A DNA stretch of 64,000 nt, taken from the NCBI GenBank assembly GCA_017467905.1, contig JAFUKD010000024.1:25958-89957 (forward strand), given 5' to 3'. This stretch comes from Phascolarctobacterium sp. (GTDB lineage Bacteria; Bacillota; Negativicutes; Acidaminococcales; Acidaminococcaceae). The position numbers and the translations under genes are program-made. A model generated the notes under the pieces. The model had not been told where the DNA came from. It saw nothing but the letters and a program-made list of their open reading frames with translations, and searched no databases. Numbering within the stretch: the first letter of the stretch is position 1; each line of letters begins with the position of its first letter. Below are positions 10,566-45,880 of the stretch, piece after piece.

Positions 10566-10626
10566 AAAAAACGCTCCGTTAGTTATGATACTTTTCTGTG
10601 TATCACCCTCATCTGAGCGTTTTTTC
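10566..10626 (-). repeat. Island-distal att-like unit L2 (candidate attL). Carries the 24-nt direct repeat of the rlmH 3' end inside an imperfect palindrome
   Basis: AACGCTCCGTTAGTTATGATACTT at 10570-10593 is identical to 45854-45877. Arms AACGCTC..ATGATAC / GTATCAC..GAGCGTT form a roughly 22-bp-arm inverted repeat flanked by A and T runs. Confidence 0.6.
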
Positions 10627-11007
10627 AACGCATCCATTTATGATAACTTCACTTAGTCATATTATACCACAAATTTTACTGTGATATTTACACACATATA
10701 TTATGGAAGAAAATTTACGATAGTGTCAATAGGGTCACTAGTGTCACTATTTTCTTACAAAAAGTTTCTCTTCTCCCGATTGGTCATTTTGTATCAACAA
10801 AATTTTGCAGATGGTTATGGTTTTACCAAGAGTATGTGCAGTGGCTGAGCGTTTTAAGCTAGAAATATAGCTGCTTTTTTCTATGATCCATAGCTATGTG
10901 AAATTACTGTACTTTTTATTTATCGTAGCCACTGTTGCCACTATAGACACTATTTGAAGATCCATCATATATCAATGAACACCTTTTATTTATAATCACT
11001 TTGTTAG

Positions 11008-11370
11008 CTAGTCCAGTAATATTCCTCTATTAAGGACTCTACCTTGCGACATTTCATCCCTAAGTTTCTGCATAATTTTTTCAGCGTAGTAGTACCAATC
11101 ATATCCTTCTGTATCAAAATTCCAATCATCATCACTATCTGGAATCATACCTAGTTCTTCAAATATTTCATCTATTGAGTCTTTTAACTTGTTAACCTCA
11201 TCAGATATTGAAAAAGTAACAAAGTCATCTTCTGCAGCAATATCAAGAACAACATCTCTTTTCTTAATCCAAACACTTATAACTCCTGGCAACTTTTCTT
11301 CGTCACCTTTAGGATAGTATTCGTATACCAACCTATTATCCGTTACATCTTTCAAAGCAAATTCGACCAT
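11008..11370 (-). CDS. Hypothetical acidic cytoplasmic protein
   Basis: 120-aa ORF with a GGAGGTGAG RBS upstream. No recognisable motif. Confidence 0.45.
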   Translation of the reverse strand: MVEFALKDVTDNRLVYEYYPKGDEEKLPGVISVWIKKRDVVLDIAAEDDFVTFSISDEVNKLKDSIDEIFEELGMIPDSDDDWNFDTEGYDWYYYAEKIMQKLRDEMSQGRVLNRGILLD

Positions 11371-11643
11371 ATTCTCACCTCCTAATAGTAATTTCTATAT
11401 ATAAATGAACCTTAATATTTATTATTTTGTTCTATCGGCAATGTTTGTCACTTCTGACTAAATAAAATAAAGCCTATTGCGTACCGTATAGGCGACAACA
11501 CTTCTCTCGCTCTGAAAGAAAGGTTATGGCTATACTCACAACAAATGTTATAGGTATGACCACAGTAATTGTTAGATACCCAAATGGTCGCTCCAATATT
11601 CGAAACGGCTAAGACATTTAGATCTTTAATCTTAGAACACATA

Positions 11644-11686
11644 AACAAAAGAAGCTACCCTTACGGATAGCTTCTTTTGCTTTTTA
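11644..11686. terminator. Bidirectional rho-independent terminator
   Basis: Stem AAGAAGCTA...TAGCTTCTT is flanked by an A-run on the left and a T-run on the right. Lies downstream of the 11759..12139 gene. Confidence 0.6.
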
Positions 11687-11758
11687 GAGATAGGAGAAAT
11701 GAATGTATGAAAAAGCCTGAGTAAAGGCTTTCCTGCAATTGGAGAAATTAAAACCAAT

Positions 11759-12139
11759 TTATTTTTTTACTTGGTGCTTTTCAAAGAAAGCGTTGTATTC
11801 TGCTACAACCTTATTAGCATTTTCAATCGCCATATTTCTTTGCTCAACGATGTGGTTCAAATCGTCTGTCGCACCATCAATATACTTTTGGGCTGCGTCC
11901 ATATAAGCATTAACTGCATTAACCCATTTAGTAATTGCTTCTGTATCTTTAATGGAAGCAGGTGTGGGCGGAATTTGCGGAAGCACATCCGCTTGCAAAG
12001 GGTACGCAGTAACCATATTAGTTGCTTTAGGAGCGGAAGCTTGCGCTTCCTTGCTTTCCTTAACTTCTGCGTGCGCTCCGTACGCCAAGCCCAACACCAA
12101 GAATGTAGTCAACATCACTTGACTGATTTTCTTACACAT
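11759..12139 (-). CDS. Secreted hypothetical protein
   Basis: 126 aa with a signal peptide (MLTTFLVLGLAYGAHA/EV) and a helical C-terminal half. Confidence 0.5.
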   Translation of the reverse strand: MCKKISQVMLTTFLVLGLAYGAHAEVKESKEAQASAPKATNMVTAYPLQADVLPQIPPTPASIKDTEAITKWVNAVNAYMDAAQKYIDGATDDLNHIVEQRNMAIENANKVVAEYNAFFEKHQVKK

Positions 12140-12378
12140 ATCTTAACCGCCTTAACATCAGTAGTCTTAAACAGTTCCACAATGGAGATATTCATCTGTT
12201 CCGCAATACGCAGGTAAACTGACAAAGGTTGTTCTAAAACATCAATACCCCTTTCAATTTTAGAAAGCTTCGCCACGCCAATGTTCAACCGTTGTGCCAA
12301 AGCCATTTGCGTAAGCCCACGCATCCTGCGGTGGAAGATGATGTTCGTTCCAATGTACTTATAAACATTTTCGTTCAT
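12115..12378 (-). CDS. XRE-family helix-turn-helix transcriptional regulator
   Basis: 87 aa. IFHRRMRGLTQMALAQRLNIGVAKLSKIERG is a Cro/C1-type HTH. Confidence 0.7.
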   Translation of the reverse strand: MNENVYKYIGTNIIFHRRMRGLTQMALAQRLNIGVAKLSKIERGIDVLEQPLSVYLRIAEQMNISIVELFKTTDVKAVKICVRKSVK

Positions 12379-12400
12379 GCTATCCCCTCATAAACATAAA

Positions 12401-12820
12401 CTATTGCACTTTGAGTGCAGTGATAACCTTTTTGGTCAAATCTTTGCCACCAACAATCATTACATTAGCATTCACAACGCTATCCACCTTGTTAGCTTGT
12501 GCTACGCTCAAAATGGTTTCGCGAATCTTTTTGTTGATGGGGTCATACTTGCGTTGTTCAAACTTCGCCATTTGAGCATTCAGCTTGTTGGCAAGTTCAA
12601 TCTTTTCCTTATCGGTTGCAAGTACTTTTGCTTGTTCGTTGAACTGTGCTTGCAAACGAGTTTTTTCTGCAACAACTTCTTGAGCAACTTCCTTAATACC
12701 AGGATAGTTTGCCACAACAGCGTTCCAATCTACAAAACCAAGTTCAGCAGCGAAGGCACTGGTGCTAAAGCCCAAAGCCATCAACGCAGAACAAAGTAAG
12801 GTCATAAGTTTTTTCTTCAT
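12401..12820 (-). CDS. OmpH/Skp-family periplasmic chaperone
   Basis: 139 aa with a signal peptide ending FSTSAFA/AE. The coiled body (EKTRLQAQFNEQAKVLATDKEKIELANKLNAQMAKFEQRK) and C-terminal VMIVGGKDLTKKVI are typical of OmpH. Confidence 0.7.
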   Translation of the reverse strand: MKKKLMTLLCSALMALGFSTSAFAAELGFVDWNAVVANYPGIKEVAQEVVAEKTRLQAQFNEQAKVLATDKEKIELANKLNAQMAKFEQRKYDPINKKIRETILSVAQANKVDSVVNANVMIVGGKDLTKKVITALKVQ

Positions 12821-12837
12821 TTAATATATATCTCCTG

Positions 12838-13284
12838 TTATTCAATTTCTTTCCAAATTTTCGCCATAATGGAAGCGTATTCGCCTTCGAGGAACTTAAC
12901 GGTTTCTGCAATGATGGCATTTACCAAAGCAGGGTCAAAAGCATCATCTTTAGAAACGATGCATGCGTTAAGAAGCAAATCGCCTTCATTAGTGATAATA
13001 AACTTAAACACGCGGTAATTATTATTCATTTCGTTAAGGAAAGCTGCAATTTTAGCGAAAGCTTCGCCTTTTACGAGAGCAGGAGCAAGTTGTACTTGTA
13101 AGAGTGCGTAAACGCTTTTGTCAAGAAGCACTGCGAACGGCAGAGTTTGACCTTTAACTTGCATCAAGCTACGGAACACAGCGGTTTCGTTTTCGTCATT
13201 GCGTTCTTCCACTTGGAAGCATTCAATTTTATTTTCAGCAAAGAAGTCTTTAAGTTTAGTAGTTTTTACATTAATATTTTCCAT
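12838..13284 (-). CDS. YbjN-like / secretion-chaperone-like small cytoplasmic protein
   Basis: 148 aa, acidic, no signal peptide. The fold assignment rests only on general resemblance to the YbjN family. Confidence 0.35.
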   Translation of the reverse strand: MENINVKTTKLKDFFAENKIECFQVEERNDENETAVFRSLMQVKGQTLPFAVLLDKSVYALLQVQLAPALVKGEAFAKIAAFLNEMNNNYRVFKFIITNEGDLLLNACIVSKDDAFDPALVNAIIAETVKFLEGEYASIMAKIWKEIE

Positions 13285-13306
13285 TTTGTGGTTCTCCTTG
13301 TATCTA

Positions 13307-13333
13307 GGGTGGACGGTGGCAAAGCCACCGCCC
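13307..13333 (-). promoter_or_regulatory. GC-rich hairpin just after the autotransporter stop codon (attenuator or RNA-stability element)
   Basis: Minus strand reads GGGCGGTGGC TTT GCCACCGTCCACCC. No T-run follows before the next RBS. Confidence 0.4.
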
Positions 13334-13346
13334 GATTATTATTTTT

Positions 13347-16300
13347 TTAGAAAGTTACTCTCAAGCCTGCATCTACACGCCATTTTTCGGTTACATCGCC
13401 ACCGAAGCTGCGTTCATAGGTTGCATAAAGCAGGCTGTTATCGCTCAGCTTAGCAGTGCCGCCAAGTTGCATTTCGTACCAAGTATCGCCAAAGTCGATG
13501 TTAGTACCCTTAGTTTCTTCTGCAGTGTAGTTGGTATCGAAATCGCCACCAAATTCATGAGCCAAAGCAAGTTTAGCATAGTAGCTTGCTCTTTCAGTTC
13601 TTTGACCAATGCCAAAACCAACGCGACCGATGATGCTGTTGAAGTCGTCTTGTTCAACTTGCATGGTTGCAGTTTTGCCGTAAGCAGCGAGCATATCACT
13701 GGTTGCAGTATAGTCTTTGCCTTGAACGTGACCAATGGTCAATTCAACGCTGGGGTCAAAGTAGAAGCCATTGCCTTTTTCGATGCGTTTGCCGTATTCT
13801 GCACTGATGGAAGTACCCCAAGTTTTGAAGTCGCCTTCAAGTTTGTAGCCATCGTTGTTAAATACTTCGTATTCGTTTTTCAATTGGCTACCTTTGAGGA
13901 TCAAGCCAAGGTAACGACCGTCGCCATAATCTTTGTTACCGTAAACAGAGAGGCTGGTTACAGTCATTTCGCCTTCACCACCACGGTCATAGCGGCTATC
14001 GCCTTCATTATGGCTTACTGCTACGCCCACGTTCCAACCATTGCCAACTGCTTTGTCATAGCCAACTTGGTATGCTTTGTAGTTGGTGGAGAAGTTGGTG
14101 TTTTGAGCATCCATTTCGTATTTACCGCCATAGTATTTAGCCCAAACGCCACTTTCTTCTGTAGCAAGGCGTACATCGCCCATGCGTTGGAGCAGGTCGT
14201 TGCTTTCGCTTCGCCACATCATAACGGTGGAAGCCATTGCAGATTTAGCGCCTTTCATCATAGCAGTTTCGCTATCACCATAGATGTAACCACTGTCAGG
14301 ATATCTTGCAGTAATGGATTCTTCGTCCAAATCACCAGTACCATTAGCAAAGTTAATGCTACCAACTTTCAATGCGCTTGCAGATGTTACGATACCTTCT
14401 GCAATTTGAGCTTCACCGAGAATATTTTTAGCATTGCTAAGCGCATTACCGTTTTCATCTTTAGCAATCATCTTCGCTGCCAAAGCTTTAAGTACTTTAG
14501 CAACTTCTTCTTTATCGCTAGTACCAATGCTATTAGTTCTTACATTCACGACGGAACCGTCAGCAGCTTTTTGGATATTAACATTACCACCAAGAATATC
14601 GTTGTCTGCATTATGACGATAGATAAAGGTAGTTTCGCCACTGTAATCTTCAACGGTCAAACCAGCGTTACTATCTTCACTCATACGGATGAAGCCTTCT
14701 TTTTCACCAGAAGCAGCACCCGCAAGTTTATCAATGGTAGTCGCATCTTCTGCGGTGTTTTCCCAAATAGCACCGTTGGAGATTTGCAAGTTAAGAGCAG
14801 AACCGGAAGCAATATCATCATGGTAACCAGTCCATACACCGCCATCATCAAGCAGTACGGTCAAATCTACGCCACCAACACTGTTACCAGTCCATTTTGC
14901 ACCGTTGGCAATGGTTGCACCAAATTTATTGTCACCATTACCTGCATATTCAACATTATCGTTCAAAGCAGAATCAGCAGTAGTCAGGCTTACAGAAGAA
15001 GCATCTGTAGGCACAACCATTCTACGAGTAAGCTTCAACACTACGGGTACTGCTTGTTCTTCTTCAACAGGTTTAGCTACGCCAAGAACAATTTTGCCGT
15101 TGATAACTACGTCGTGGTCTTTCGCTTCTTCGTTAATCTTAATCTTACCGCCATCGGTAACTTTAATTGCTGCTTCATCACCTTTAGCACCAATTTCGCC
15201 ACCTGCAAGAGTTACAGTAGAGCCTTCGCCTACATTAACAGCAATCTTGCCATTGGTTTCAGTAATATCTACCAAACCGTTGATAGTTACGTTAGCTTTA
15301 TCTTCTGCGTGCAATACGCCATGGGTTTTATCGTTATCTTTGGCACTAAGTTTAACAATATTATCATCCTTATCAGTATGGATAGTAACATCTTTGCCCT
15401 CACCGCTTGCATAGATGGCAGAAGCCTTACCATTGTTGCCTACTGCTTCTGTTGTAATGATAATGTTGCCAGCATCCTTAATTGTTACACTGCCATCTAC
15501 CGCTTCAATGCCTTTAGCTTCCTTAGCTTCGCCATTAGTTTTACCAGTAACATCAAGGTCTTTACCTTTCATTTCAAGTACAAGATTACCACTCGCGGGA
15601 CCACCAATTAAGGTAGTATTTTCTGTGGATTCTTGCGGAGCGATAATTACTTTATCAACTTCTTCATGTTCAGGTTTAGCATTGCCTTGTTGGTCAATAT
15701 CAAGCTTGCCAAAATCAACTACATTATTACCACTTTCATCCTTGCTAACGATACTTTCGCCTTTATCATTTTTAAGGCTATCGTCGTTTGTCAAATCGCC
15801 ACCGATACCGCCAAATTCTTTTTCAACAGGTTTTTCTTCAGGTTCAACAGGTTTTTCCGGTTCAACAGGTTTATCCGGAGTGGTAGGTGTATCTTCGCCA
15901 CCTTGGTTACCACCTTGGTTATCGTCACCACTAGGAGGTACTTCCGGTGCTACATCCATTTGCAAGCTATCTTTATTCAGGCTACCTTGACCAGTAGAGC
16001 TACTAAAATCAATGTTGCCGGTATGTTTACCTACGCTAGAAGCAGTCAAGCCTTCGGCAATTTGAACGTACCCTTTCAAGTTGCGTTCGCCATCAACATA
16101 GTTAGTGTAGTACAGTTTTTCTGCAAGGTTATCTAAAGTTTCAGCAACTTGTACTTTATTCAAGATGTTATACCCATCAGTACTCAAGGTAATTTTAGAA
16201 CCTTTTTCAGCATGTTCAATGGTAGTAGTACCGCCGAGAACTTTGGTTACATTGTTATCGTCACGTCTGTAGATGATTGTTGTATTACCGCTGTAATTGG

Positions 16301-19300
16301 TAATTTTCAAGTTACCAGTTTCTTGTTTGCCCTTATCTTCGATACTTGTGTTCTTAAAGCTTACGCCATTACTATTTTCTGCATGGCTAGCATCATTATG
16401 ACCAATAAATGTTTTGTTACCAGTCATATCAATAAAGCCGTTGTCCCCGATAAAGGTGTAAACTTTACTATCAGCACCTTGGTCTTTGGTAATTGCGTTT
16501 TGCCAAAGTGCCTTGTCAGTCAGTGTCAAAGTTAAACCACCATTAATTTCACCAACATCGTCAGGTTCACGTTCTGCAATGTTAAATCCGTACCAAGTAG
16601 TACCTTCACCTTCCATGGTTACGTTCATTTCGCCGTCACTAAAGCCAGTCCAGTCTGCCCCATTTTTCATATACAGGGTAACATTGCCTTCTTGACCTTT
16701 AGTTACGCCATAACCGCGGTTATCGCCATAGTTACCAGTCCAGTAGCTTTCGTCACCGTTCAAGCCTACAGTAATGTAACCTAAAGTACCCATACCGCCG
16801 TTGGTTACAAAGTCACCAATAATGGTAGTCTTGCGTTCGCCAGCACCAGTAATATTTCCGTCCTCATCTTTAACTACGTTCACGTTTACAGTTGCAGCGT
16901 TATCGGAAACAAATTCACCATAAGCACGAATAGCGCACCATGCACCATTTTTAGCTTCAAGATGTCCGCCACCGATTTCAATGTCAGAAGCAACTGCACT
17001 AAGAGCTTCGTTGTTGCACTTATCCAAATCAGCAACGATATGTACCATACCATCAATTATTACTTTAGAACGTACACCATCAAGACCGTTCATGGTCTTA
17101 ATACCAGCACCTTCTTGACCATAAGTATCAGGGTCAACACCTGCTTGAGTGTCAATCCTCACAACTCCGCCTTCGCCATTTTTAATATGTACCACGCCAC
17201 CGCCGTTAGCAAATATGCCCGCAGAAGGACCAATACAATTTTCAGTAATGGTAATATTACCAGGATTATTAATTTCAACAGTACCGCCATCAATAGCACT
17301 GATTGCCGCACCGCTACCAATACTTGTACTATTGTTATTCAACACAAGTTCATTGCCATTTAAGTTGACAATAGTTTTATAGCTTTTATCTGGATTATCC
17401 AAATCACCACTTGCATAGATAATTGCACCTATATCTTTATGCCATGGGCCACCTTCAATACGGGTTGTATCATTTCGGGTGGTGTTTTCAGTATAAGTAA
17501 TGACTTGTTCATAAACTACAGGTTCAGTTACCACATCATCTTCGTCATCATCAGGTGTGCTACCACCATCAACAACCAAATCGCCAAGGCTACCCTTACC
17601 ACTACTTGCATCAAATTTAATATTACCATTCAAAGTACCGCTTTCTTTATCAAAGGCAACTTTTTCAAGTTCGCTATTAACGCTACCTTTATTATCAATA
17701 AAGCCACCATTTAAAAGTTCTGCTGTAATTGAAGAAGCAGTCAAACCTTCGCCAATTTTCAAATAACCTTTTAAATTATTTTCGCCATTTGTATAACCAG
17801 TATAGTAAAGTTTACCTGCTAAACTATTGAGTACTTCTTCTACATTATCAACTGTAATAGCACTGGAATAGTTAGTTTGTAAGGTAAGGTTACTACCTGC
17901 TGTAGCACTTATTATAGTGATATCCCCACTACCTTGGAAATTAGTAGGTTCACCTTCTTCATAAGAATATATTACGGTTGCATTATTGTGGAACTTATCA
18001 ATAAGAATATCACCACTATTTGCGGTTTGAATTATCCTAGCATCGGCATAATTCGCCGTCGTCCCCCTGCCAACACTCAAATCCGTGCCACGGAAGTTGG
18101 TTAAATGACTTGTTACACCAGGTTCGCCATTGGTAGAAACGTTAGTCCAAGTAGCACCATCAACCAAGTACAAATTAGCAGCACCACCTTCGTTAATGAC
18201 AGCACCATTAAAATAAGCGTAACTACCTTTCATACGTGCATCAATAGCAGCATTTTCACCACCAACATACCAGTCGCCATCAATCATACCACCAACTGGA
18301 ACGGTGTTGTGTGTATATGTAGGGTCATAGCCATAGGAAGGATAACCATTGCCGTCAAATTGGATATTGCCATTATAGGCTGCTAAAGAATAATACTTAT
18401 GCTCTGCATTACCTGTAGGTACAAGGATTTGACTTCCTTTATACGGATTGTAGTTAATGTTATTGTTGCCTACATTGTACCCTACCTTGACAGCCGCAAA
18501 GCTTCCCATTAAATCGCTACCAGATGCATCAACAGTAATACCATTACCGCAAACATCCATATAGACACTACCATTTATCTCAATAGAACTTCCATTTACA
18601 TCTAACAAAATACCCGAATTATTATAACGTGCATCAGTATTGTCAGGATTATCGCAGATACCCCATTGATTAGGTTCAGTACCTTTTATCTTCACATCAC
18701 CATTAATACTTAGATAGCCACCCAAATCTGATTCTTTATTACCATCACTTCTAGTAATTGCGATACCATTACCACCATGACCACCCACCATAGTAATATT
18801 TATCCCATGGCTAGATTGAATAGCTGCACTTAAACAATCAGTAGTATTACCAAGACCAGGTTCTATCCAAATTGCGTTTGTGCGTAAGTAACTGTCTTCC
18901 GGTAATACGGTTACGATATCAATAGTTTTATCACTACCAGCTGTACCAAGTATTGCCCAGTTATCAATCGCATCATTATAAATAGCAACCGGTTTATAAT
19001 CATAATCACCATTTATTTGTATGCGTACTAAATCAGGGTTATCAGTACCAAGCCAATCCTGATAACCATTTTCTAAATATAATCCAGTTACAATCTTCTT
19101 GTCTTCAAGTTTTATAGCTTCGCTTGTATCTATAACTCCGTTCGGTGTTGCATCAACAAAAACATCATTATCATACAAAGGTGCTTCGTGATTTTTAACA
19201 TTGGGGTACGCAGGACCAGTAGTTACTTGTTCATTGTCGTTATCATCGCCACCAACATCACCACCACCAATATTAAGGTTTTCGTCAGTAATATTGCCGG

Positions 19301-22079: not shown

Positions 22080-22094
22080 AACGTCTTTCCTTTC

Positions 22095-32454: not shown

Positions 32455-32456
32455 TT

Positions 32457-33358: not shown

Positions 33359-33736
33359 CTATACACGATGGTTCTTAATCCACTCTAAAAGCTCATCATA
33401 TTTCAAACTACCTTCTGCTAATCCCAACCCTATCTGTACTACTTCATCATTAGTACAATCAAGATATATTCCATTAACCTCCAAGAATGTAATCATTATG
33501 TACATTCCTATTCTTTTATTACCATCGACAAATGCATGATTAGATACTAAGCTATATCCTATTTTTGCAGCCTTTTCTTCTTTGGTAGGATAAAACTCCT
33601 TATCACCAAAACCTGCAAAAGCACTCTCTATAGCAGACTCCAATAGTCCTTCATCACGAACACCAACGCTACCTCCAGTTTCGGCAGCAATAAGTTGATG
33701 TAACAGTAATATCTTTTCTTTAGAAAACTTAATCAT
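33359..33736 (-). CDS. doc: Doc (death-on-curing, Fic family) toxin
   Basis: 125 aa with the HAFVDGNKRIG Fic/Doc motif. Overlaps the phd stop by 4 nt. Confidence 0.85.
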   Translation of the reverse strand: MIKFSKEKILLLHQLIAAETGGSVGVRDEGLLESAIESAFAGFGDKEFYPTKEEKAAKIGYSLVSNHAFVDGNKRIGMYIMITFLEVNGIYLDCTNDEVVQIGLGLAEGSLKYDELLEWIKNHRV

Positions 33737-33999
33737 TTCGCAAGCTCCAGAAATGCAGGTTTAAATCTTTTTAAAACCCTGGCTGCAACAATATCAATTT
33801 TTTCATCATCAGTTAAATCAATTATAGGGGAATTATCCATATCAATAACGAGATATTTAGGTCGATTGTTTTTGAAAATAACTGCTTGTCCATTTTTTTC
33901 TGCAATTCTAGTAACACGAGAAAAATTTTGGTTGGCTTCAGTAACAGAAACGATAGTATTGGTATCAATATTCATATCAACTACCTCCTTTATCTCCAT
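33733..33999 (-). CDS. phd: Phd/YefM-family antitoxin
   Basis: 88 aa containing VSVTEANQNFSRVTRIAEKNGQAVIFKNNRPKYLVID. Immediately upstream of doc. Confidence 0.75.
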   Translation of the reverse strand: MEIKEVVDMNIDTNTIVSVTEANQNFSRVTRIAEKNGQAVIFKNNRPKYLVIDMDNSPIIDLTDDEKIDIVAARVLKRFKPAFLELAK

Positions 34000-34139: not shown

Positions 34140-34295
34140 TTATGACCAGAATAACCTCCAATAAACCAAGAGTATTAAGCTTTTGAATGTTATCCATAAT
34201 ACTAATAATAAACTAAGTAATAGCAATTCTAGCCTTTTATCCGTTTCACTAAGCATATGCTCCCACCTTTCGTTGTTATATTTGATTTCTGTCAT
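34140..34295 (-). CDS. Possible 51-aa hydrophobic micro-protein translationally coupled to the recombinase stop
   Basis: Own translation gives MTEIKYNNERWEHMLSETDKRLELLLLSLLLVLWITFKSLILLVYWRLFWS. Its ATG overlaps the recombinase TGA (ATGA). Below the track size cut-off. Confidence 0.25.
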   Translation of the reverse strand: MTEIKYNNERWEHMLSETDKRLELLLLSLLLVLWITFKSLILLVYWRLFWS

Positions 34296-35932
34296 ATTTC
34301 GATAACCAATAGCCATTGCTCATCCTCCAGTGTTCCGTTGCATAAAAAAATCCCCCCATCATTTTGGGAGGATTTAGATGTCAGGTATTCTTGAAGCTCT
34401 ATGCCAAACTTCATATAGAGCTTATCTACCTTGTTATTTTTCACGGTTATTCTATCAATCAACAATCTCAATAACAATTTCGTTTGTTCTGGTGGAGCGG
34501 AATCCATCACTGCCTTAAAGTTTGCCAATGATTCCTTTATAAATTCAATATTCAACTCATTGTTGGTAAGGCTATTATTTCCTGCTAATATTTTCTTCTG
34601 TTCTATTAGCTTAGTAGCACTATCATTCAACTCGCTTATCCTTTTATCAAGGGTAGCTTTGTCATATCTGCCATCAATGTATAAGTCTAATAGCCTTTGT
34701 TTACGTTCTTCAATTTCAACTATCTTTGCATCCACGCTATCATACTCACGCTTCCTGCTTTCGATAGATTTGTCTGCTTTTTTCTTAATTCCACATAGTA
34801 TTTCTTGGATAAGCTCAGGACTACTTAAAAACTCTGCTACCTTATCCAATACATATTTCTCTGCTTCGTCAGCACCTACAGAGTTACTTTTACATACGCT
34901 AGCACCTTTGTTTTTGAAGTTGGAACAACAATAGTACCTATATACTCGTTTATTGCCATTCTTCAAATTACTAGTAGACCTACCTATCACCATAGGAGCA
35001 TTGCACACAGGGCAACGCAACAGGCTACTAAGATAGTTCTCGTCATTATGTACTTTCTGCGTAGTAGAACACCTTTCAGAACGAATATTTTGTGCCCTGT
35101 TCCAAACTGCTTCGCTAACAATAGCTTCGTGAACGCCTTTAACGATAATAGGGTTTGGATTCTTCCCTTTTCTACGTTTTTCGCTCCACTTGCGGTACTT
35201 CCCATATCTTACATAACCCTTGTATAGTGGGTTATCGATAATTTCTCTTATGCTATACAAGCTAAACTCTTTACCATGAATAGTTCTATAACCTTCTTTG
35301 TTAAGTTTATTAGCTATAGCCTTAAAGCCTTTACCATTGCAGAACCATTCGTATATTTTCCTGATGATTATCGCTTCTGGCTCATAAATGACTAGGTCAT
35401 TCTTTTTGGGTCTGGTAGCACTCGGAACAACTCGGTAACCCAATGCCTTACTACCGCTATGCAAGCCAAGTCTAGCTCTTTGGTTTAAGCCTAAGCTAAC
35501 ATTTTCAACAATGGTATTGCGTTCTAATTCACCAACCGCAGCGAGCATTTGAACTGCAAACTTACCCATGGGATTAGAGGTATCGAAGTTTTCTGTGAGT
35601 GAGGTGATGGAAACGTTATATTTCTCTAGTCTCTCGAAAATCTCAAGGAAATCCTTGGTATTACGAGAAATGCGATTAATCTTCCACACCACCACTTCGT
35701 CAAACTTACCACTCTCAGCATCTTTAAGAAGCCTCTGTACCTCTGGTCGTTTAGTAATGTTCTTACCACTTATGCCAGCATCTACATATTCACCGACTAC
35801 AGTATAGCCATGCAGTTCACAATATTGGTGGATTTTTTCTTTTTGACCTTCAATGGAATAACCCTTCTCAGCTTGTTCTTCAGTTGATACCCTTGCATAT
35901 AGGGCTACTCGTTTTGGTTTTGATGGATCCAT
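34292..35932 (-). CDS. Large serine recombinase (CcrB-like position)
   Basis: MDPSKPKRVALYARVSTEEQ catalytic N-terminus, a recombinase domain, a zinc-ribbon (CPVCNAPM...YRYYCCSNFKNKGASVC) and a coiled-coil C-terminus. Start set at the internal ATG 4 nt after the upstream stop. Confidence 0.9.
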   Translation of the reverse strand: MDPSKPKRVALYARVSTEEQAEKGYSIEGQKEKIHQYCELHGYTVVGEYVDAGISGKNITKRPEVQRLLKDAESGKFDEVVVWKINRISRNTKDFLEIFERLEKYNVSITSLTENFDTSNPMGKFAVQMLAAVGELERNTIVENVSLGLNQRARLGLHSGSKALGYRVVPSATRPKKNDLVIYEPEAIIIRKIYEWFCNGKGFKAIANKLNKEGYRTIHGKEFSLYSIREIIDNPLYKGYVRYGKYRKWSEKRRKGKNPNPIIVKGVHEAIVSEAVWNRAQNIRSERCSTTQKVHNDENYLSSLLRCPVCNAPMVIGRSTSNLKNGNKRVYRYYCCSNFKNKGASVCKSNSVGADEAEKYVLDKVAEFLSSPELIQEILCGIKKKADKSIESRKREYDSVDAKIVEIEERKQRLLDLYIDGRYDKATLDKRISELNDSATKLIEQKKILAGNNSLTNNELNIEFIKESLANFKAVMDSAPPEQTKLLLRLLIDRITVKNNKVDKLYMKFGIELQEYLTSKSSQNDGGIFLCNGTLEDEQWLLVIEI

Positions 35933-35936
35933 AAAT

Positions 35937-37463
35937 TCACCTACTTTCTTTAATATCAATTTTCATTGTTTGTAACCTTCCATTCTGCTTCACGTTAGGT
36001 ATGTAAACTTCAATAGTCTTAACGAACCTATCCTCGTCTACATATACCGCCTTAATAACACCACGTAGCAGCTTTATCTTTTCTTCGTCAGTTGCTTTTT
36101 CTAACAGCTTTGGTAATAGTTTAAACGCTGCTCTAATTTCTTCTTCGCTATACGCTTGCCTTACTTCACTAAACTGCTTACGATTTAGATCCAGTTCTAC
36201 TTCTTCTATGGCTTCCTGAATAGCATTGTCCTCTTCCAGCAACTGTTCAGTGCTTAGCCTGCCTTCTTCAAAAGCCAATAGCAGTTTATCACGCTTGGCA
36301 TTCAGCTTAGTTATATTACTTTTAAGGCTCTCTATTTTATCTTCCATAGACTTATCAACGGATAATCTTACTTGGACTTCTTCAATTACCTTATTCAGCC
36401 AGATATCCTTACACAGATACTTGTAAAGGAAAGCCAAAACAACTTCATCAGCTTCTTTAGCCTTGACTAAGTTTGGCTTGCAATTGCCAGTTCCCCTATT
36501 ATTGTACTCGTTACAGCTATAGTAATAGTACCGCCTTTCAGTACCATTCTTATTCTTATGGAATACGTGTGCAGGTATCATACCTGTACCACAAGCAGGA
36601 CACTTAACTAGTCCTGAGAGCAAGTAACGGTAATCAACAATTCGTTTACAGTGTGTTTTGGTAGCCAACATTGCTTGAGCCTTTTCCCAAGTTTCAATGC
36701 TTACTATAGGCTCATGAATACCTTGGTAATACTCTCCACAATACTTGACCATTCCTGCATACACCTTACTATCCAATATTCTCTTAATAGACATAATGGA
36801 AAACGGACTACCCTTACTACCTCTATACCCATCAGCATTCAACATTTGAGCAATTGACTTAAAGCCATATCCTTGCAAGTATAAATCAAATACTTTCCTT
36901 ACAGCTTTTGCTTCTCTCGGAACTATTACTAGCTTTTTAGTGCCTTTAGGGTCATCAGTGTCAGGTATGCTATCATACCCAAACAGCTTCCCACCAACTA
37001 CCTTGCCGGCTTTAGCCTTTTTCTTGCTCCCATTAAGTACGTTTTCTATCAAAGCTTCCCTCTGCATTTGGGCAATGCTGCCAAACATCTGGGCAGTAAA
37101 CTTTCCTACAGGGGTATTAAGGTCAAACTTTTCAGTAAAGCTGAATAGCTGTATGTTTTCCCTTTGAAATTCGTCGAAGATAACCAATAAATTAGCAAGC
37201 TTCCTGCTCAACCTGCTTATCATCCAAACGCCTACACTACCAAATAGACCTTCTTTAGCATCATTAAGCATAGCCTGTAAGCCAGGTCTTTCCATAGTAT
37301 ATCCAGAAATACCTGCGTCCTTATAGACCTTGAACACCTTCTTGCCTTGTCGAGCGATTTCGTCTCGAAGCACCTTTTCCTGAGCTTCGAGACTATAACC
37401 GCCTTCTGCTTGCCTAGTGCTACTAACACGCACATAGATAGCTACAAACTTAGATTTATCCAT
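35937..37463 (-). CDS. Large serine recombinase (CcrA-like position)
   Basis: FVAIYVRVSSTRQAEGGYSLEAQ catalytic N-terminus, a zinc-ribbon (CPACGTGM...YYYYSCNEYNNRGTGNC) and a coiled-coil. Confidence 0.9.
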   Translation of the reverse strand: MDKSKFVAIYVRVSSTRQAEGGYSLEAQEKVLRDEIARQGKKVFKVYKDAGISGYTMERPGLQAMLNDAKEGLFGSVGVWMISRLSRKLANLLVIFDEFQRENIQLFSFTEKFDLNTPVGKFTAQMFGSIAQMQREALIENVLNGSKKKAKAGKVVGGKLFGYDSIPDTDDPKGTKKLVIVPREAKAVRKVFDLYLQGYGFKSIAQMLNADGYRGSKGSPFSIMSIKRILDSKVYAGMVKYCGEYYQGIHEPIVSIETWEKAQAMLATKTHCKRIVDYRYLLSGLVKCPACGTGMIPAHVFHKNKNGTERRYYYYSCNEYNNRGTGNCKPNLVKAKEADEVVLAFLYKYLCKDIWLNKVIEEVQVRLSVDKSMEDKIESLKSNITKLNAKRDKLLLAFEEGRLSTEQLLEEDNAIQEAIEEVELDLNRKQFSEVRQAYSEEEIRAAFKLLPKLLEKATDEEKIKLLRGVIKAVYVDEDRFVKTIEVYIPNVKQNGRLQTMKIDIKESR

Positions 37464-37708: not shown

Positions 37709-39220
37709 TTAAGCTACTGCTTCAGCATTAGCTTCGTCTGTTTTTCCAAATTTAATATAACGAACCCCATTGCTCTTGTTACTAGAATCAACATTTATGG
37801 AGTAACCCATCCCACGAAAAGCTGGCATCAGCGTTTTAAGCTTATTACTCAGTTCTTGTGAACTACTCACCCATTTTTCGCTGTTCATATTGATATGATT
37901 GGTTCGAGCGATTTCCATCAGCTTTTTGTAAAGTTCTGTAGAATTCACCTTGCAGGGGAATTTGTTTAGAGACTCTAAATAAAGCATTAATGCATATGCT
38001 AACGGGTCTTGTTGTACCAGGTCTTCGAATACGAAGCCCTTGTTTCTCAAAAAAATTTCGATAAATTCTTTGTCACTACCAAATACAATAGTGGCTATGG
38101 CTCTACCCCAGGTAAAGAAGTCAATCAAGCGAGGAGATTCTACGTACTCCAAGTCGTCGTATATTTGCATCGCTTGACTAAGCACAGAAAAAATTTGTCC
38201 TAATATATAGGGTAGCTTTTCGTCAAACTCTTTTTCAATAGCCTTGGCTGAAACATACTTTTTGTTCAGCGTGGGCAATTCAAATCCTACAATGCGGTCA
38301 CGAAGATCCAGGCGTGCATTTTCAATGGCGATGCCATTAAGTAACACGCAGTTCTTGAAGCTAACTACGCTTGCATCAAAATTAGAATACTTGGTGCGTT
38401 TTAGCATACTACCACCAGTTGAAGCTTGGCAGAGCAAATCACTTACGCCTTTAGGTAAGTCAGTAATATTGTCTACCGCCATAACGTAGTGAGTTGAAAG
38501 AGCTACGCCAAGGTCTTCTTTGGTATCTGGAGAATTTAGAGTTTCATGGGTAACAGGATCTACAATTTTCTGTATGAGAGAGGTAAGGAAGGTCTTACCA
38601 GAACCCTGCTCACCTTGCAACAAAATTACTGCTTTAGGAATGTCTTGAATAAACCAAGCAACCAAGCATACCGTTAGCAGCTTCTTAGAATCATCATCCA
38701 TGTTAAGGAACGGAGAAAGCAGGTCATACAGGTTATGTCCCTTCTTTATTTTGGGCATTACCTGTTCTCCCATCAAGCTATTGCTCATAAATGCACAAGC
38801 TTTTTGGGATACCTCGATTTCATCTTCGAAATAAGTATCTTCAGCAGTTACTACTACATACTGACGAGCTTCATTGTTTAAATTGTAGACAATCTCGTCT
38901 CCAACCTTAGCAATTCTGCTGTAGATGGTTTTCTTGTTCTTGCTAGTAAGTGCATGGGCAAGAACATAATCAACGATTCTCTTGATAAATTTGTTTTCGT
39001 ATAGTTTATCTTCTACTGCTATGCACTCCATCAAGATTCTGTACTTGAAGATTTCGCTCTTAATGGCATCAGTGCGCACTTCATTGTTTCTGTCCATCCA
39101 GGTTATGTATTCTAAACCGGTGTTAGTTCCAACGAATAGTTCACTGCCGTCAATAATAGCTTTCACAGTATTGAAAATCTCTTCTAGTACTTCTTCGGCT
39201 TTACCAGTTTTTTTAGCCAT
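37709..39220 (-). CDS. P-loop NTPase, SF3/VirE-like helicase candidate (the intact member of the paralogue family)
   Basis: 503 aa. Walker A is LLQGEQGSGKTF, Walker-B-like is YVMAVDNITDL and a motif-C-like segment is FKNCVLLNGIA. It shares N- and C-terminal blocks with the three following ORFs. Confidence 0.55.
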   Translation of the reverse strand: MAKKTGKAEEVLEEIFNTVKAIIDGSELFVGTNTGLEYITWMDRNNEVRTDAIKSEIFKYRILMECIAVEDKLYENKFIKRIVDYVLAHALTSKNKKTIYSRIAKVGDEIVYNLNNEARQYVVVTAEDTYFEDEIEVSQKACAFMSNSLMGEQVMPKIKKGHNLYDLLSPFLNMDDDSKKLLTVCLVAWFIQDIPKAVILLQGEQGSGKTFLTSLIQKIVDPVTHETLNSPDTKEDLGVALSTHYVMAVDNITDLPKGVSDLLCQASTGGSMLKRTKYSNFDASVVSFKNCVLLNGIAIENARLDLRDRIVGFELPTLNKKYVSAKAIEKEFDEKLPYILGQIFSVLSQAMQIYDDLEYVESPRLIDFFTWGRAIATIVFGSDKEFIEIFLRNKGFVFEDLVQQDPLAYALMLYLESLNKFPCKVNSTELYKKLMEIARTNHINMNSEKWVSSSQELSNKLKTLMPAFRGMGYSINVDSSNKSNGVRYIKFGKTDEANAEAVA

Positions 39221-42634: not shown

Positions 42635-43819
42635 TTAAGCAATCTTAGTATTAAGAAGCTTTTCACGTTTAGTAGCGATTAGCTCAAGGTAATTTGCCTT
42701 CCAAGCATTAACATCGCGACCAAACGGTTTGCGTTCTACATATGCATTTGTAAAAACGTCCTTACTACCAAACAGAACAAAGGATATTGCTGTTGCCCAT
42801 TGCATGAAGTCAGTAAGCACACCTGCATATTCTACCTCTATGCTGTCTTTAATCGCCATCGCTTCGCTCAAAACAGTAAAGATCGCTTGCAGAATGTATG
42901 GGCGGTCTTCTTCAAATGAAGCAATCGCTTCAGCCAATTCTTCACGATTACTAAGTTCAACTTTCGGGCTAACTGTGAGCACCTTCGCTAACAAGTCAAT
43001 ATCGAAGTTCTTCATGGCTAAGTCAAAGGTAACCATAGCATTGCGCATATTACCCATGTCGCCACCATTCAGACCTTCATTTCCCAAGTTGTGCCAGAGT
43101 AACCAATTTAGGTCTTTAATATTGTAGCCAAAGTGCAAATAACGTTTCGCCAACACAGCATGGTCGCTTTCAGCGTTAAAGTACAGTTCTTCACCTTTTA
43201 CAGGATCAACTACGTATTCAAGTACGTATTTTGCCCAAGCAAGGGTATCTACGCTTTCACTATTGACGTAAAGCACCGGCTTAACGATATGGGGTACGAA
43301 TGCTGCAACCAACCAAGTGGACAAAAGCACTGTATCTTCAATGCTCAAGCCAAAAAGCTCACCAACTTTGTCAACAAGGTCGATTTGCTTTTCGCTTCTT
43401 GGTAAAACTTGATTGCCCATATGTTTTGATTTTACAAATGCAAAGCCTTCATCGAATAAGTCTTGCATGTCAATCACGCTGAGCTTATTAGGTTCAACAA
43501 CTGCTACGTTGGTATTATCCAAGTTGTAAAAGATTTTGCTGTCTTCATACATTCGGGATACAACGTATTTTGCATCGGCATTATCCATCCAGCCTTGAAT
43601 GAATGCTTCAACAACTTCGTCAGCCTCTTCGTCTTCGTAAAGAGAAGGATTGCTTCTTTTAATGGCATTAGCCAAATCAACCTCATCAATTGAGCCAACT
43701 TCGTAAATGCCGTCAGCATTAACGCAACTAGCATAATAAAATCCAGTATTGTAACCAGCGAATACATCGCAATAATCAGGAACGGTAATGGATTCGATTT
43801 TTTCGTTTAAATTAGTCAT
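42635..43819 (-). CDS. Paralogue of the P-loop protein with a degenerate Walker A (pseudo-NTPase), first gene of the array
   Basis: 394 aa. Shared blocks are SRMYEDSKIFYNL, QVLPRSEKQIDLVDKV, FVPHIVKPVLYV, VVDPVK and RPYILQAIFTVLSEAM. The Walker A position reads NSESVDTL. Confidence 0.55.
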   Translation of the reverse strand: MTNLNEKIESITVPDYCDVFAGYNTGFYYASCVNADGIYEVGSIDEVDLANAIKRSNPSLYEDEEADEVVEAFIQGWMDNADAKYVVSRMYEDSKIFYNLDNTNVAVVEPNKLSVIDMQDLFDEGFAFVKSKHMGNQVLPRSEKQIDLVDKVGELFGLSIEDTVLLSTWLVAAFVPHIVKPVLYVNSESVDTLAWAKYVLEYVVDPVKGEELYFNAESDHAVLAKRYLHFGYNIKDLNWLLWHNLGNEGLNGGDMGNMRNAMVTFDLAMKNFDIDLLAKVLTVSPKVELSNREELAEAIASFEEDRPYILQAIFTVLSEAMAIKDSIEVEYAGVLTDFMQWATAISFVLFGSKDVFTNAYVERKPFGRDVNAWKANYLELIATKREKLLNTKIA

Positions 43820-43859
43820 TTAAAATTCCTCCTACTATGTAATGTGTCTTGCAACACCT

Positions 43860-44265
43860 GACAATAAAAAGGAACCTTCACCTTTGCTCAAAAGCTATTG
43901 AAGATGGCATTACAGCCCACATAGCTTCCAAGCATCGGCTTGGTCTACTGTATTCCAATTGTCAAGGTTCAAGTGGTTTTTAACTGCTTCACAGGGATTA
44001 CCCTTGCGTTCTTAGGAGGCATTCCTCGCAGCCAACTCACAATTCGTGCTCGTTCACTTGAAGATTGCCACCCTCGAAGCGTGGGGTAAGGTTTTGCGGT
44101 ACGCACTTTAAGGCACAACTTTTTTCCCTGTGGGGTTCAACGTTGTGCCCTCCCCATTGGCGCTGCAGCCGCTACAAAAGGCTGCTCAACGAGGAGGTGT
44201 CTACCGCTGGCGCTAGCAAAGTAAGAAGCGGCTAGCGCCACATCTTTTGCAAGCTTAGGAACTTT
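43860..44265. ncRNA. Candidate large structured RNA or structured DNA site (class unknown)
   Basis: No ORF of 60 aa or more in any frame between 43820 and 44556. G+C is locally elevated: 36/60 counted in line 44161, against 23/60 in coding line 43741. Many perfect nested stems are present: GAACCTT/AAGGTTC, AGCTAT/ATAGCT, CCAAGC/GCTTGG, GGCACAAC/GTTGTGCC, GCAGCC/GGCTGC and GGCGCTAGC/GCTAGCGCC. Confidence 0.35.
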
Positions 44266-44270
44266 CGTTC

Positions 44271-44460
44271 ATTGTAACAAATTGTAAAACAAGTCCGCGG
44301 TACCTGTTCTTCAATCGTCTCTTGTATGATATCACCGTAACTGTATTGTGTCAATGGATTTTCGTCCACTATTAGAGTACAAGTTTTTGCAAAAAAAAGG
44401 GCTCTTTTTCTGTACCTTAATTTCGAGAATTGTGTAACATTTCTTCGAAAAATTGTAAAC
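44271..44460. repeat. Iteron-like ATTGTAA(A/C) repeats in the AT-rich segment next to the structured region
   Basis: ATTGTAACAA at 44271 and ATTGTAAAAC at 44281 are 10 bp apart. AATTGTGTAAC is at 44428 and AATTGTAAAC at 44451. Confidence 0.3.
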
Positions 44461-44556
44461 TACAGAAATTGAGCCTTGCTTAATCCCATATATTAAGTTT
44501 TCTTACCCTTCAAGCAACGATTATTGTTTACTTTCCTCGCTAGATGAAGTACTTTG

Positions 44557-45600
44557 TTAATCCTGTCCTGCCAGCTTTTTTAAAAGGTTTGCAACCCTAA
44601 CCATTCCCGACTTAATATCTTCAAAATCTTTCTGTTTTTGGTGTTCCAGTTCATCAAGTATATCATCAAGTGAATCCCCTACTTGAAAAGCTTCATCTGC
44701 TTCGATGATAGACTCTATCCTTTTAATGTAGAAATTGATAAGCCTTAAATTCTCCATTGACTTTCTATTATATCTTTTGCAAACCGGATCATTATCCGAA
44801 GCTAAAATAGAATGGTAAGTTATGTATGTGCTTAACCTATTTCCAATACCATTGTACCTTGCAACAATTTCCTCTTGTAAAGTTTTTACATCTATGGCAT
44901 TACCGACTATTTGGTCTAAATCCTCCTTCAAATTCTCCCTTGCAATTTGCTCAATAGCAGCCCTATTATTCACTATATAATTATGGCAACATTCAATACG
45001 CTTCCAATACGGCACTTCCTTATTACCAGCCAGAATCACTTCAGATTCTTCAGACAAATATATTAACACCTTTCTAAGAAACAAGGCATGGAGTTCTTGA
45101 TCCTCAGATAATACCTTCTTCTTATATTCTTTTATATTTTTACTTTTTCTTTCATCTGCTACCTGTGCATAATGCTTAAGATATTTATATTCCTCATCAT
45201 CACAAAAAACCTTGTCCAAAAGATATACAAAGCCTGGTAAAAACTTATTGGATATAGCCATTCTCATATTGTCGTCTAATTCAAGATTTTTAACAACATC
45301 CGCATATTCTTCAAATATCTGTTTAGCATCATCGCTTGAACAGAAGTCTTTTATAAGTTCCAAAGCTGTCATTGTTCTAGGACCAGACCAATATAGCATA
45401 TCTAAAACCCTAGCCAATCTTTCTTTTATAAACCGATAATTCGGATGCCACTCTAAATTACCATGAGCATTTACATATTTTTTAAAGTAAAAATAATAAA
45501 TATCTTTTATGGACATACCATCATGTTTACGCTTATCACTTAAATATTTTATTGCCTCTTCTATTTCATCAGGAGAAAACCAAATTCTAATATTTGACAT
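44557..45600 (-). CDS. Hypothetical all-helical protein, first gene inside the island next to rlmH
   Basis: 347-aa ORF, AT-rich, with no recognisable motif. Confidence 0.5.
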   Translation of the reverse strand: MSNIRIWFSPDEIEEAIKYLSDKRKHDGMSIKDIYYFYFKKYVNAHGNLEWHPNYRFIKERLARVLDMLYWSGPRTMTALELIKDFCSSDDAKQIFEEYADVVKNLELDDNMRMAISNKFLPGFVYLLDKVFCDDEEYKYLKHYAQVADERKSKNIKEYKKKVLSEDQELHALFLRKVLIYLSEESEVILAGNKEVPYWKRIECCHNYIVNNRAAIEQIARENLKEDLDQIVGNAIDVKTLQEEIVARYNGIGNRLSTYITYHSILASDNDPVCKRYNRKSMENLRLINFYIKRIESIIEADEAFQVGDSLDDILDELEHQKQKDFEDIKSGMVRVANLLKKLAGQD

Positions 45601-45800
45601 ATACCTGCTCCTTTCAGCTTCCCTTTAAATGTAGTAACTACTTACATAATACTCTCAATACACATACTATTCCTGCTATCAAATATATTAAATTTGTCTT
45701 ATCACTAATGCCTGCTAACCCAAAGCACTTCGCTCTTATACAACGCAGTATTAGCTCTCAGAGGACTTTATTTAAAACATGATTGCCCAAACCTTAACAA

Positions 45801-45841
45801 GAAAACTCCAACCCTCACAATCGAGAGTTGGAGTTTTTATT
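45801..45841 (-). terminator. Rho-independent terminator following rlmH, lying inside the island end
   Basis: Stem AACTCCAAC...GTTGGAGTT is followed by a T-run on the minus strand. Confidence 0.6.
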
Positions 45842-45853
45842 TTTACGCTATTT

Positions 45854-45880
45854 AACGCTCCGTTAGTTATGATACTTCTG
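45854..45880 (-). repeat. rlmH-proximal direct repeat (candidate attR)
   Basis: AACGCTCCGTTAGTTATGATACTT is identical to 10570-10593. It covers the rlmH stop codon (45863-45865) and its last four codons. Confidence 0.65.

Follow-up and report, generated by a model that had tools for sequence, protein, structure and literature searches.

Results

The rlmH locus and the boundaries of the insertion

The window analysed here, a stretch of 64,000 nucleotides from a Phascolarctobacterium sp. genome, contains rlmH, which encodes the 23S rRNA pseudouridine methyltransferase, and an insertion of 35,357 bp at the 3' end of this gene, including two adjacent large serine recombinase (LSR) genes, a small resolvase, helicase-type genes, a recombination module, a toxin-antitoxin pair and genes encoding outer-membrane proteins (Table 1). 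The host belongs to the Negativicutes, is a double-membraned gut Firmicute, and encodes TamB (in the window flanks) and BamA (further out, in contig L004); its ClpB, HtrA and an ABC-F protein match NCBI metagenome-assembled-genome entries of Phascolarctobacterium sp. exactly. The insertion is very probably an island resembling the staphylococcal cassette chromosome (SCC), integrated site-specifically into the chromosome by the LSR pair, whose members are relatives of the Ccr recombinases.

Empty sites were found by exact look-up of the barstar protein in same-species metagenome contigs (approximately 96-97% DNA identity). In five of these contigs (L003, L005, L006, L008, L009) rlmH is directly followed by the barnase/barstar pair, the arrangement that the preliminary description of this DNA had predicted for relatives; these contigs also counter one of the outcomes that it had named as refuting, that all relatives would carry the 35 kb. 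Their alignment to the window extends to 45869 on the right side and runs leftwards from 10522 on the left side, with an 11-bp overlap (ATGATACTTCT), indicating that the insertion occupies window positions 10,524-45,880. The left chromosomal junction is at 10,512-10,523, 57 bp to the left of the repeat at which the preliminary description started its island (10570-45880): the left start moves to about 10,523, and the repeat at 10570 forms part of an internal attP-like site. A third, degenerate core copy at 10508-10532, missed in that description, marks the real junction and keeps the native rlmH end (AAG TAT CAC TGG TAA, KYHW*). Seven contigs from several samples show the occupied arrangement, and one of them, 129.9 kb long, crosses both junctions on its own, which makes a chimeric assembly unlikely.

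The 24-mer AACGCTCCGTTAGTTATGATACTT is present as two exact copies (10570-10593 and 45854-45877), as described, and nowhere else in the window with up to three mismatches; there were no matches in 100 shuffles. A chance or dispersed repeat was ruled out by the shuffles and by the boundaries matching the empty sites. The end of rlmH (CAG AAG TAT CAT AAC TAA) is inside the right copy, again as described: the island provides the stop and the three codons before it, and the C-terminus is KYHN* in place of the native KYHW*. Pfam bore out the yycJ-htrA-rlmH block on the right flank, and the lower G+C content reported for the island was also observed (38.9% versus 43.1% and 45.8% in the flanks). The hairpin located 28 nt past the new rlmH stop is likely, from its modelled fold, a replacement terminator brought by the island; a consensus terminator scan of this hairpin gave no flag.

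One same-species strain (L099 981-2540) has only about 1.5 kb between rlmH (KYHN*) and barnase: one AAA_14/DUF4143 ATPase gene and a main-type island start, without a recognisable distal site. From its sequence, this stretch resembles what a decaying element would leave behind at this hotspot.

Attachment sites

Three attachment (att) sites were distinguished, all of them read in the rlmH sense (Table 1). The two outer junctions are centred on CA: site 3, proximal to rlmH, and site 1, the true distal junction. Site 2, inside the insertion, is a dyad, AAAAAACGCTC-N9-TGATAC-N8-GTATCA-N9-GAGCGTTTTTT, whose N8 spacer (ACAGAAAA) is centred on GA and which folds with an 8-nt loop (z = -4.1); such a complete dyad is attP-like rather than a hybrid junction. 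Between the centres of sites 1 and 2 lies the 73-bp mini-unit, which has equivalents of 72 bp (L092), 53 bp (L096) and 52 bp (L235-L237) in related elements, and arrived with the island, because the empty sites do not have it.

The layout of the window is rlmH-[CA]-main island-[GA]-73 bp-[CA]-native tail. The layouts of the related elements are: rlmH-[GA]-72 bp-[CA]-main in Phasco2 (L092; host rlmH 84% identical to that of the window); rlmH-[GA]-53 bp-[CA]-main in L096; rlmH-[GA]-52 bp-[CA]-main in L235-L237; and main-[GA]-TTGGTAA tail in a fifth element (L239-L241), whose distal end has no doublet. In all four Phascolarctobacterium-group elements with a readable doublet, an attP-like GA site abuts an attP-like CA site, and the window is the only CA host and the only permuted layout among the elements compared. 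Pattern and GTPase-homolog searches of contigs retrieved no complete GA-host element with both ends; the homologs of the island GTPase, tried as a route to the distal end, led to unrelated chromosomal sites by methylmalonyl-CoA mutase genes.

The attB of the host species is dimorphic: empty sites encoding SRGEKYHW have GA (many contigs, e.g. L003), and those encoding SSGQKYHW have CA (L100, L101). Occupied rlmH ends encode SSGQKYHN in the window and SRGEKYHN in the L099 remnant. The haplotypes to the left of the core are AGTCGAGGCGAG (SRGE; L003 9380-9400) and AGTAGCGGTCAG (SSGQ; L100 735-760; window 45880-45892). Five differences between the window and most empty sites in the 12 nt left of the core, considered as possible foreign DNA, are due to this standing dimorphism. 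The SSGQ haplotype replaces a glutamate kept in all the other RlmH proteins compared, and is found on at least two rlmH backgrounds.

If the crossover occurs at the dyad centre, sites 1 and 3 (CA, CA) can be the products of one event, and sites 2 and 3 (GA, CA) cannot. All the layouts fit one circle, main-[GA]-mini-[CA]-main, so that entry through GA would give the GA-host layout and entry through CA the window layout. The site sequences suggest, with a probability that we judge about even, that the circular form bears two abutting attP sites, GA and CA, and that the attP matching the host attB is used, giving two circularly permuted layouts. Included in this reading, and in our estimate poised just as evenly, is the proposal that the host target escaped via the one position at which serine recombinases tolerate no mismatch and that the element countered by doubling its own site.

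The recombinases and their family

LSR1 and LSR2 both match PF00239, PF07508 and PF13408 (E between 1e-41 and 3e-12), that is, the catalytic serine domain, the recombinase domain and the zinc ribbon of large serine recombinases, and the VRVSS and ARVST motifs are present. The NCBIfam scores (NF047344, CcrA; NF047343, CcrB; NF047347, CcrC; equivalog cut-offs of 700-900 bits) were 402 bits for CcrB, 373 for CcrC and 137 for CcrA in the case of LSR2, and 259, 237 and 133 bits, respectively, in the case of LSR1. These scores place both proteins as relatives of Ccr, not as CcrA and CcrB proper. Of the likeness to the staphylococcal CcrA/CcrB pair drawn in the preliminary description, what stands is a Ccr-related LSR pair; both members are CcrB/CcrC-like and far below the cut-offs.

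A homolog search gave hundreds of CcrB-like proteins at 40-47% identity (Pelosinus, Anaerospora, Paenibacillus, Bacillus, Brevibacillus, others). One genome per species was then scanned with an LSR2 alignment made from these proteins, giving 78 loci, nearly all from Bacillota, including two staphylococcal ccrB (L081, L082; 39-40% identical to LSR2) and the Paenibacillus pinistramenti contig of PMC10061031 (L023; recombinase 42% identical to LSR2). In half of these loci (39/78) rlmH is located within 10 kb of the recombinase, and most have a second recombinase immediately upstream. The upstream and downstream recombinases fall into largely parallel groupings in a neighbour-joining tree, which cannot settle whether LSR1 and CcrA are orthologs and whose placement of LSR2 beside staphylococcal CcrB was not used.

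Common across the family are the att core TATCATAA, a motif whose conservation between SCCmec and ECC has been reported (PMC6222049), and GA as the crossover dinucleotide. All family sites compared, proximal or distal, have GA in the middle of the 8-nt spacer, the neighbouring positions being variable, and several distal family sites have outer inverted repeats (TTTTCGCCG...CGGCGAAAA) centred on GA. The junction between the rlmH end and the element start is alike over the family: ...GTATCATAAGTGA followed by CGGCGAAA elsewhere and GTATCATAACTAA followed by CGGAGCGTT in the window, with the codons CCG TAT CAT AAG TGA before CGGCGAAA in most loci and AAG TAT CAT AAC TAA before CGGAGCGTT in the window. 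Extra rlmH-end repeats, i.e. composite islands, are present in many family loci.

Two layouts were observed in the family loci (L013-L090): rlmH upstream on the same strand, 5-9.5 kb from the recombinase, as in the window; and the recombinase converging on the rlmH 3' end, with a gap of 30-400 bp where there is a single recombinase. The single recombinases group with the downstream (CcrB-like) partners in the neighbour-joining tree.

The very acidic 39-aa open reading frame (ORF) between the helicase and LSR1 is, from its conservation, a candidate small regulator or directionality factor. The excisionase-like helix-turn-helix (HTH) protein of the preliminary description was not recovered: there was no excisionase-family match among the island ORFs, only an Xre-type HTH protein in the cargo and this conserved 39-aa ORF.

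Backbone and cargo genes

The rlmH-proximal 19 kb of the island are a conserved backbone, and the distal 16 kb are cargo of a kind specific to double-membraned hosts. The backbone (window 26.7-45.9 kb) is common to the Phascolarctobacterium-group elements L091-L097, L102 and L235-L238, in the following order: helicase paralog(s), helicase, 39-aa ORF, LSR1, LSR2, a variable toxin-antitoxin slot, exonuclease, S6 paralog and annealing protein. The slot is occupied by HipAB in Phasco2 (L091). The DNA match of the window to Phasco2 (L091) stops at 26679. The 409-aa protein is 97% identical to the Phasco2 copy and Doc is 99% identical to the L235 copy, yet the neighbouring recombinases are only 54-77% identical, indicating recombination among elements.

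Fold matching identified the 503-aa protein encoded upstream of the recombinases as a D5-like superfamily 3 (SF3) helicase, in line with the P-loop replication-like genes that had been described in the island. The Foldseek matches in PDB (E 5e-10 to 3e-8) were: the African swine fever virus PrimPol helicase; the C-terminal region of NrS-1; the SaPI5 primase-helicase (7ola); and vaccinia D5/monkeypox virus E5. Only the fold search was informative: there was no Pfam, NCBIfam or PDB sequence match to this protein, and PDB sequence searches with the 503-, 409- and 410-aa proteins gave nothing useful. On the basis of the modelled structure, it is presumed to be the replicative helicase of the excised element. 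The three paralogs without Walker A also lack the C-terminal domain; relatives have one or two such copies, and their possible roles include those of loader, regulator or partner in a hetero-oligomer.

Upstream of the helicase-paralog genes there are 450 bp without any ORF of at least 70 aa (43793-44239), 81% identical to Phasco2 (L091 1454-1904). This stretch might hold a promoter or an origin; a repeat search found no convincing iterons in it, and Rfam gave no match on the island.

The ribosomal protein S6 paralog between the exonuclease and the annealing protein is present in every related element examined (L091 12548-12856; L096 13606-13908; L235 15174-15506). Copies of the GTPase at 78-79% identity are located at other Phascolarctobacterium chromosomal sites: adjoining methylmalonyl-CoA mutase genes (L242-L244, L243 being from the sample of the window strain; L242 has WYL and sigma-factor genes upstream) and adjoining serpin genes (L245). 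More distant homologs (60-68% identity) occur widely in metagenome contigs, with a Blautia genome and a Lachnospiraceae metagenome-assembled genome among their sources. Judging from this distribution, the GTPase behaves as a separately mobile module. The only PADLOC matches on the island were weak LeoA/LeoBC-like matches to the GTPase.

The region 10.6-26.6 kb is considered cargo because it has no counterpart in the related elements as far as their contigs reach. Pfam bore out the outer-membrane cargo of the preliminary description (TonB receptor, autotransporter, Skp); a YbjN-like protein and two unknown ORFs complete this region. The remaining gene content described earlier was recovered for the two adjacent LSRs, the small resolvase, Doc, the Erf/Rad52-like protein with its exonuclease and the P-loop genes; the Phd match was weak.

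Table 1 Features of the rlmH locus and the island (window coordinates).
Feature	Coordinates	Strand	Evidence
Barnase/barstar pair, chromosomal	9636-10505	-	Pfam; directly 3' of rlmH in empty-site L003, L005, L006, L008
Site 1, distal junction: island end arm GCTCCGATAGGGGCGATACACT + CA (TG at 10522-10523, + strand) + displaced native rlmH end GAAGTATCACTGGTAA	10497-10549	-	Empty-site alignment, pattern match
73-bp mini-unit: start-type and end-type half-sites	10524-10596	-	Sequence
Site 2, intact attP-like site, central GA (TC at 10595-10596, + strand), holding the left 24-mer	10566-10625	-	Sequence and DNA fold
Cargo region	11008-24746	-	Pfam Plug 9e-19, Autotransporter 3e-35, OmpH 7e-12
Xre-type HTH protein	12115-12378	-	
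OmpH/Skp-like protein	12401-12820	-	
Autotransporter, 2910 aa	13347-22079	-	
TonB-dependent receptor	22095-24746	-	
Far backbone end: DUF3846 protein, small ORFs, 201-aa ORF, GTPase, small serine resolvase	25905-29776	-	
Small serine resolvase	25905-26627	-	
GTPase	26680-27660	-	
Recombination module, including 228-aa, 66-aa and 139-aa ORFs	29797-33143	-	PHROGs and Pfam; kept in relatives
Erf/Rad52-like annealing protein	30213-30935	-	
Ribosomal protein S6 paralog	31250-31537	-	PF01250, 91 bits
PD-(D/E)XK-type exonuclease	31546-32454	-	
Phd-like antitoxin (weak match) and Doc/Fic toxin	33359-33999	-	Pfam
LSR2, downstream CcrB-like recombinase	34292-35959	-	Pfam; NCBIfam CcrB best; likely start ATG 35932 (546 aa)
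LSR1, upstream recombinase, 508 aa	35937-37463	-	Pfam Resolvase/Recombinase/Zn_ribbon_recom; VRVSS catalytic motif
Very acidic ORF, 39 aa	37469-37588	-	In L001 and all relatives examined (L091-L097, L235-L238), 36-40 aa
D5-like SF3 helicase, 503 aa, Walker A GEQGSGKT	37709-39220	-	AlphaFold2 pLDDT 84; Foldseek PDB
Helicase paralog without Walker A, 410 aa	39294-40526	-	Alignment; tblastn cross-matches
Helicase paralog without Walker A, 409 aa	40587-41816	-	Alignment; tblastn cross-matches
ORF among helicase paralogs, 214 aa	41905-42549	-	
Helicase paralog without Walker A, 394 aa	42635-43819	-	Alignment; tblastn cross-matches
ORF adjoining rlmH, 347 aa	44557-45600	-	No Pfam, NCBIfam, PHROGs or PADLOC match
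Hairpin, 15-bp stem then U-run	45792-45837	-	RNA fold -29.3 kcal/mol, z = -6.1
Site 3, rlmH-proximal junction: rlmH body arm + CA (TG at 45879-45880, + strand; inferred crossover) + island start arm TAACTAACGGAGCGTT	45850-45905	-	Empty-site alignment
rlmH	45863-46342	-	Pfam SPOUT_MTase E 1e-56; 3' ends compared

Discussion

Comparison with known systems

SCC-like elements downstream of rlmH have been described in diverse Bacillota (Bebel et al. 2023, PMC10061031), where they encode COG3378-type helicases together with either one or two large serine recombinases and sometimes contain several repeats; the P. pinistramenti NZ_VAWG01000004 contig is one such composite and Bacillus cereus provides another example (PMC10061031), and rlmH-targeting SCC-like elements are known in several Gram-positive Bacillota (PMC10061031, PMC6222049, PMC10581047). 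The island of the window shares with them the location after rlmH, the rlmH-end repeats, the two adjacent LSRs preceded by a D5/COG3378-type helicase and the occurrence of composites. It differs from them in its host, a double-membraned Negativicute where the published hosts are Gram-positive, in its three helicase paralogs without Walker A and in the GA + CA att doublet. No match to the A-family polymerase/SSB primase pair was found among the ORFs upstream of the helicase, where the helicase paralogs sit.

With SCC/SCCmec the island has in common: the insertion into the 3' end of rlmH (orfX), where the same codons are targeted (..E-x-Y-H-x-stop), the TATCATAA core and the provision of a replacement gene end; and the recombinase pair with a helicase upstream, the variable cargo and the tandem/composite att sites. 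Judged by the IWG-SCC definition, integration at the rlmH 3' end is apparent from the comparison of empty and occupied sites; there are three direct core copies, and the end and start arms form a dyad, corresponding to direct repeats with terminal inverted repeats; a Ccr-related pair is present, with scores below the equivalog cut-offs and an activity that is predicted only; and the host is not a staphylococcus. The recombinases of the window share only about 40% identity with CcrB and are not equivalogs, their upstream member resembling CcrB/CcrC instead of CcrA; the helicase is of the D5/SF3 type and the cargo consists of outer-membrane proteins. The helicase of staphylococcal SCC is Cch, which came up for the window helicase neither in the sequence search of PDB nor in the 50 Foldseek matches listed. 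The outer junctions of the window are CA, and ccrAB is said to require GA as the dinucleotide at the centre (PMC10581047).

ECC (PMC6222049) resembles the island in the rlmH 3' insertion, the att repeats of about 50 bp with TATCATAA, the inverted repeats in the circular-form site, the ccrAB-like pair (likened by description), the highly variable cargo and the size (about 32 kb). Its transfer was shown experimentally with a helper plasmid (PMC6222049), whereas the island of the window is known from sequence alone, and the window host is of a different phylum-level lineage and cell envelope. The domain architecture of LSR1 and LSR2 is the same as that of the phage large serine integrases (Bxb1, phiC31, A118/LI type), which use an attP dyad of about 50 bp whose central crossover dinucleotide must match that of the partner; those integrases are single, with a separate directionality factor, in phage genomes, whereas the window has a pair, no phage genes and possibly two attP sites. 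Overall, the integration logic of SCC was found in a different host, as the preliminary description had proposed (empty sites, Ccr relatives, a common att core, an upstream helicase). As for its novelty, this logic was already published outside staphylococci, and the diderm host and the outer-membrane cargo appear to be new; no paper joining cassette chromosomes with Negativicutes was found in the literature collection searched.

Proposed mechanism and alternative explanations

LSR1 and LSR2 would recombine the element site with an attB spanning the last rlmH codons. Integration would exchange the stop of rlmH and the three codons before it (KYHW* to KYHN*), add the terminator-like hairpin and displace the original rlmH end by 35 kb, to a position beside barnase. 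Replication of the excised circle would probably use the D5-like SF3 helicase, whose gene lies just upstream of the recombinase genes; Phd/Doc may stabilise the circle, and the exonuclease/annealing-protein module of the element may remodel it. In the window, the CA site would have been used and the GA site left intact in the island, 73 bp from the distal junction. The predicted circle junction, via sites 1 and 3, is ...AAATGCTCCGATAGGGGCGATACACT-CA-GAAGTATCATAACTAACGGAGCGTTAAATAGCG..., and the predicted restored attB is ...AAGATTAGTAGCGGT-CA-GAAGTATCACTGGTAAATGTACG... What was observed directly is the insertion polymorphism together with the boundaries, the gene families and the link to rlmH throughout the family; recombinase action, excision, replication, crossover position and transfer are inferred from them.

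Several points weigh against this interpretation. The best NCBIfam scores of the recombinases are well under the 900 bits required of a CcrB equivalog; LSR1 is closer to CcrB/CcrC than to CcrA, and staphylococcal CcrA is a long isolated branch in the neighbour-joining tree, so that orthology with the CcrA/CcrB pair is no more than putative. No circular junction or excision product was seen, the activity being deduced from the intact ORFs and the population polymorphism: JGI metagenome contigs searched with the arm pattern gave neither circular junctions nor further copies, a looser end-plus-core pattern gave 120 matches in these contigs, all of them unrelated chance, and IMG/VR gave one truncated relative (L102) and, with an 18-mer pattern, chance matches only. 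No transfer machinery was identified among the island ORFs. With respect to the two attP sites, the crossover position is derived from the dyad symmetry and from a statement on staphylococcal CcrAB, and CcrAB is reported to be promiscuous across att-site pairings (PMC12286644). In L099 a GA site is joined directly to a main-type start, and simple two-site elements are not universal. The four doublet elements are related, so that their GA-host layouts are not independent, and the permuted layout was seen once.

The main alternative to the two-attP reading is a carried-along pseudo-element: the 73-bp unit would be the decayed remnant of an older tandem element (pseudo-SCC), the GA/CA difference would be neutral, and the current element would be the 35.28 kb between the 24-mers, as drawn in the preliminary description. 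Islands with multiple repeats at rlmH are common in the family, have been described previously (PMC10061031) and include Paenibacillus loci with extra repeats 0.7-2 kb from rlmH; moreover, the two 24-mers are identical and site 1 has diverged, and L099 shows that remnants do occur at the rlmH locus. We nevertheless consider this composite origin rather unlikely: the empty-site contigs of the species have no mini-unit, which consequently came with the island; four elements whose recombinases are only 56-77% identical all keep a doublet of 52-73 bp amounting to about two half-sites only, always GA + CA; and, if the crossover is at the dyad centre, sites 1 and 3 can both stem from a single integration, which sites 2 and 3 cannot.

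An immobile relic, having entered once or by homologous recombination with the flanks, with inactive recombinases and a polymorphism reflecting ancestry, would account for the window-type island being present in a single lineage (contigs 100% identical), for the circular junction not being found in the contig searches and for the family scans recognising no conjugation or packaging genes. It is improbable considering that both recombinase ORFs are full length with catalytic serine motifs, that sites 2 and 3 share 24 identical nt in their arms, that empty sites exist in both attB haplotypes, and that related species carry at least four related mosaic elements at this site, their genes of up to 99% identity beside divergent recombinases pointing to ongoing turnover. 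Even less probable is a prophage, phage satellite or integrative conjugative element merely sharing the serine integrase type of SCC. The exonuclease/annealing module (PHROGs) and the SF3 helicase (SaPI5 fold match) do have phage or satellite relatives, and one relative (L102) is listed in IMG/VR; however, Pfam/PHROGs scans detected no capsid, terminase, portal, tail or capsid-redirection genes (seven ORFs, of 347, 228, 214, 201, 139, 126 and 120 aa, were unmatched), Pfam/NCBIfam scans detected no relaxase, coupling protein or type IV secretion genes among the island ORFs tested, and there was no DNA similarity to 50,697 phage records, except for a 43-bp recombinase motif, or to 72,556 plasmids.

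Biological significance

SCC elements move methicillin resistance, and the reach and host-range limits of cassette-chromosome elements are therefore practical questions. The locus described here takes the rlmH/Ccr-type system into a gut Firmicute with a double membrane; the cargo is composed of a receptor, an adhesin-like autotransporter and a chaperone, and the empty and filled sites are drawn from natural populations. If the two-attP reading is true, host and element would be in conflict over just one crossover dinucleotide of a conserved housekeeping gene, and these islands would provide natural recombinase/att pairs with switched crossover specificity, possibly useful for integrase-based genome engineering.

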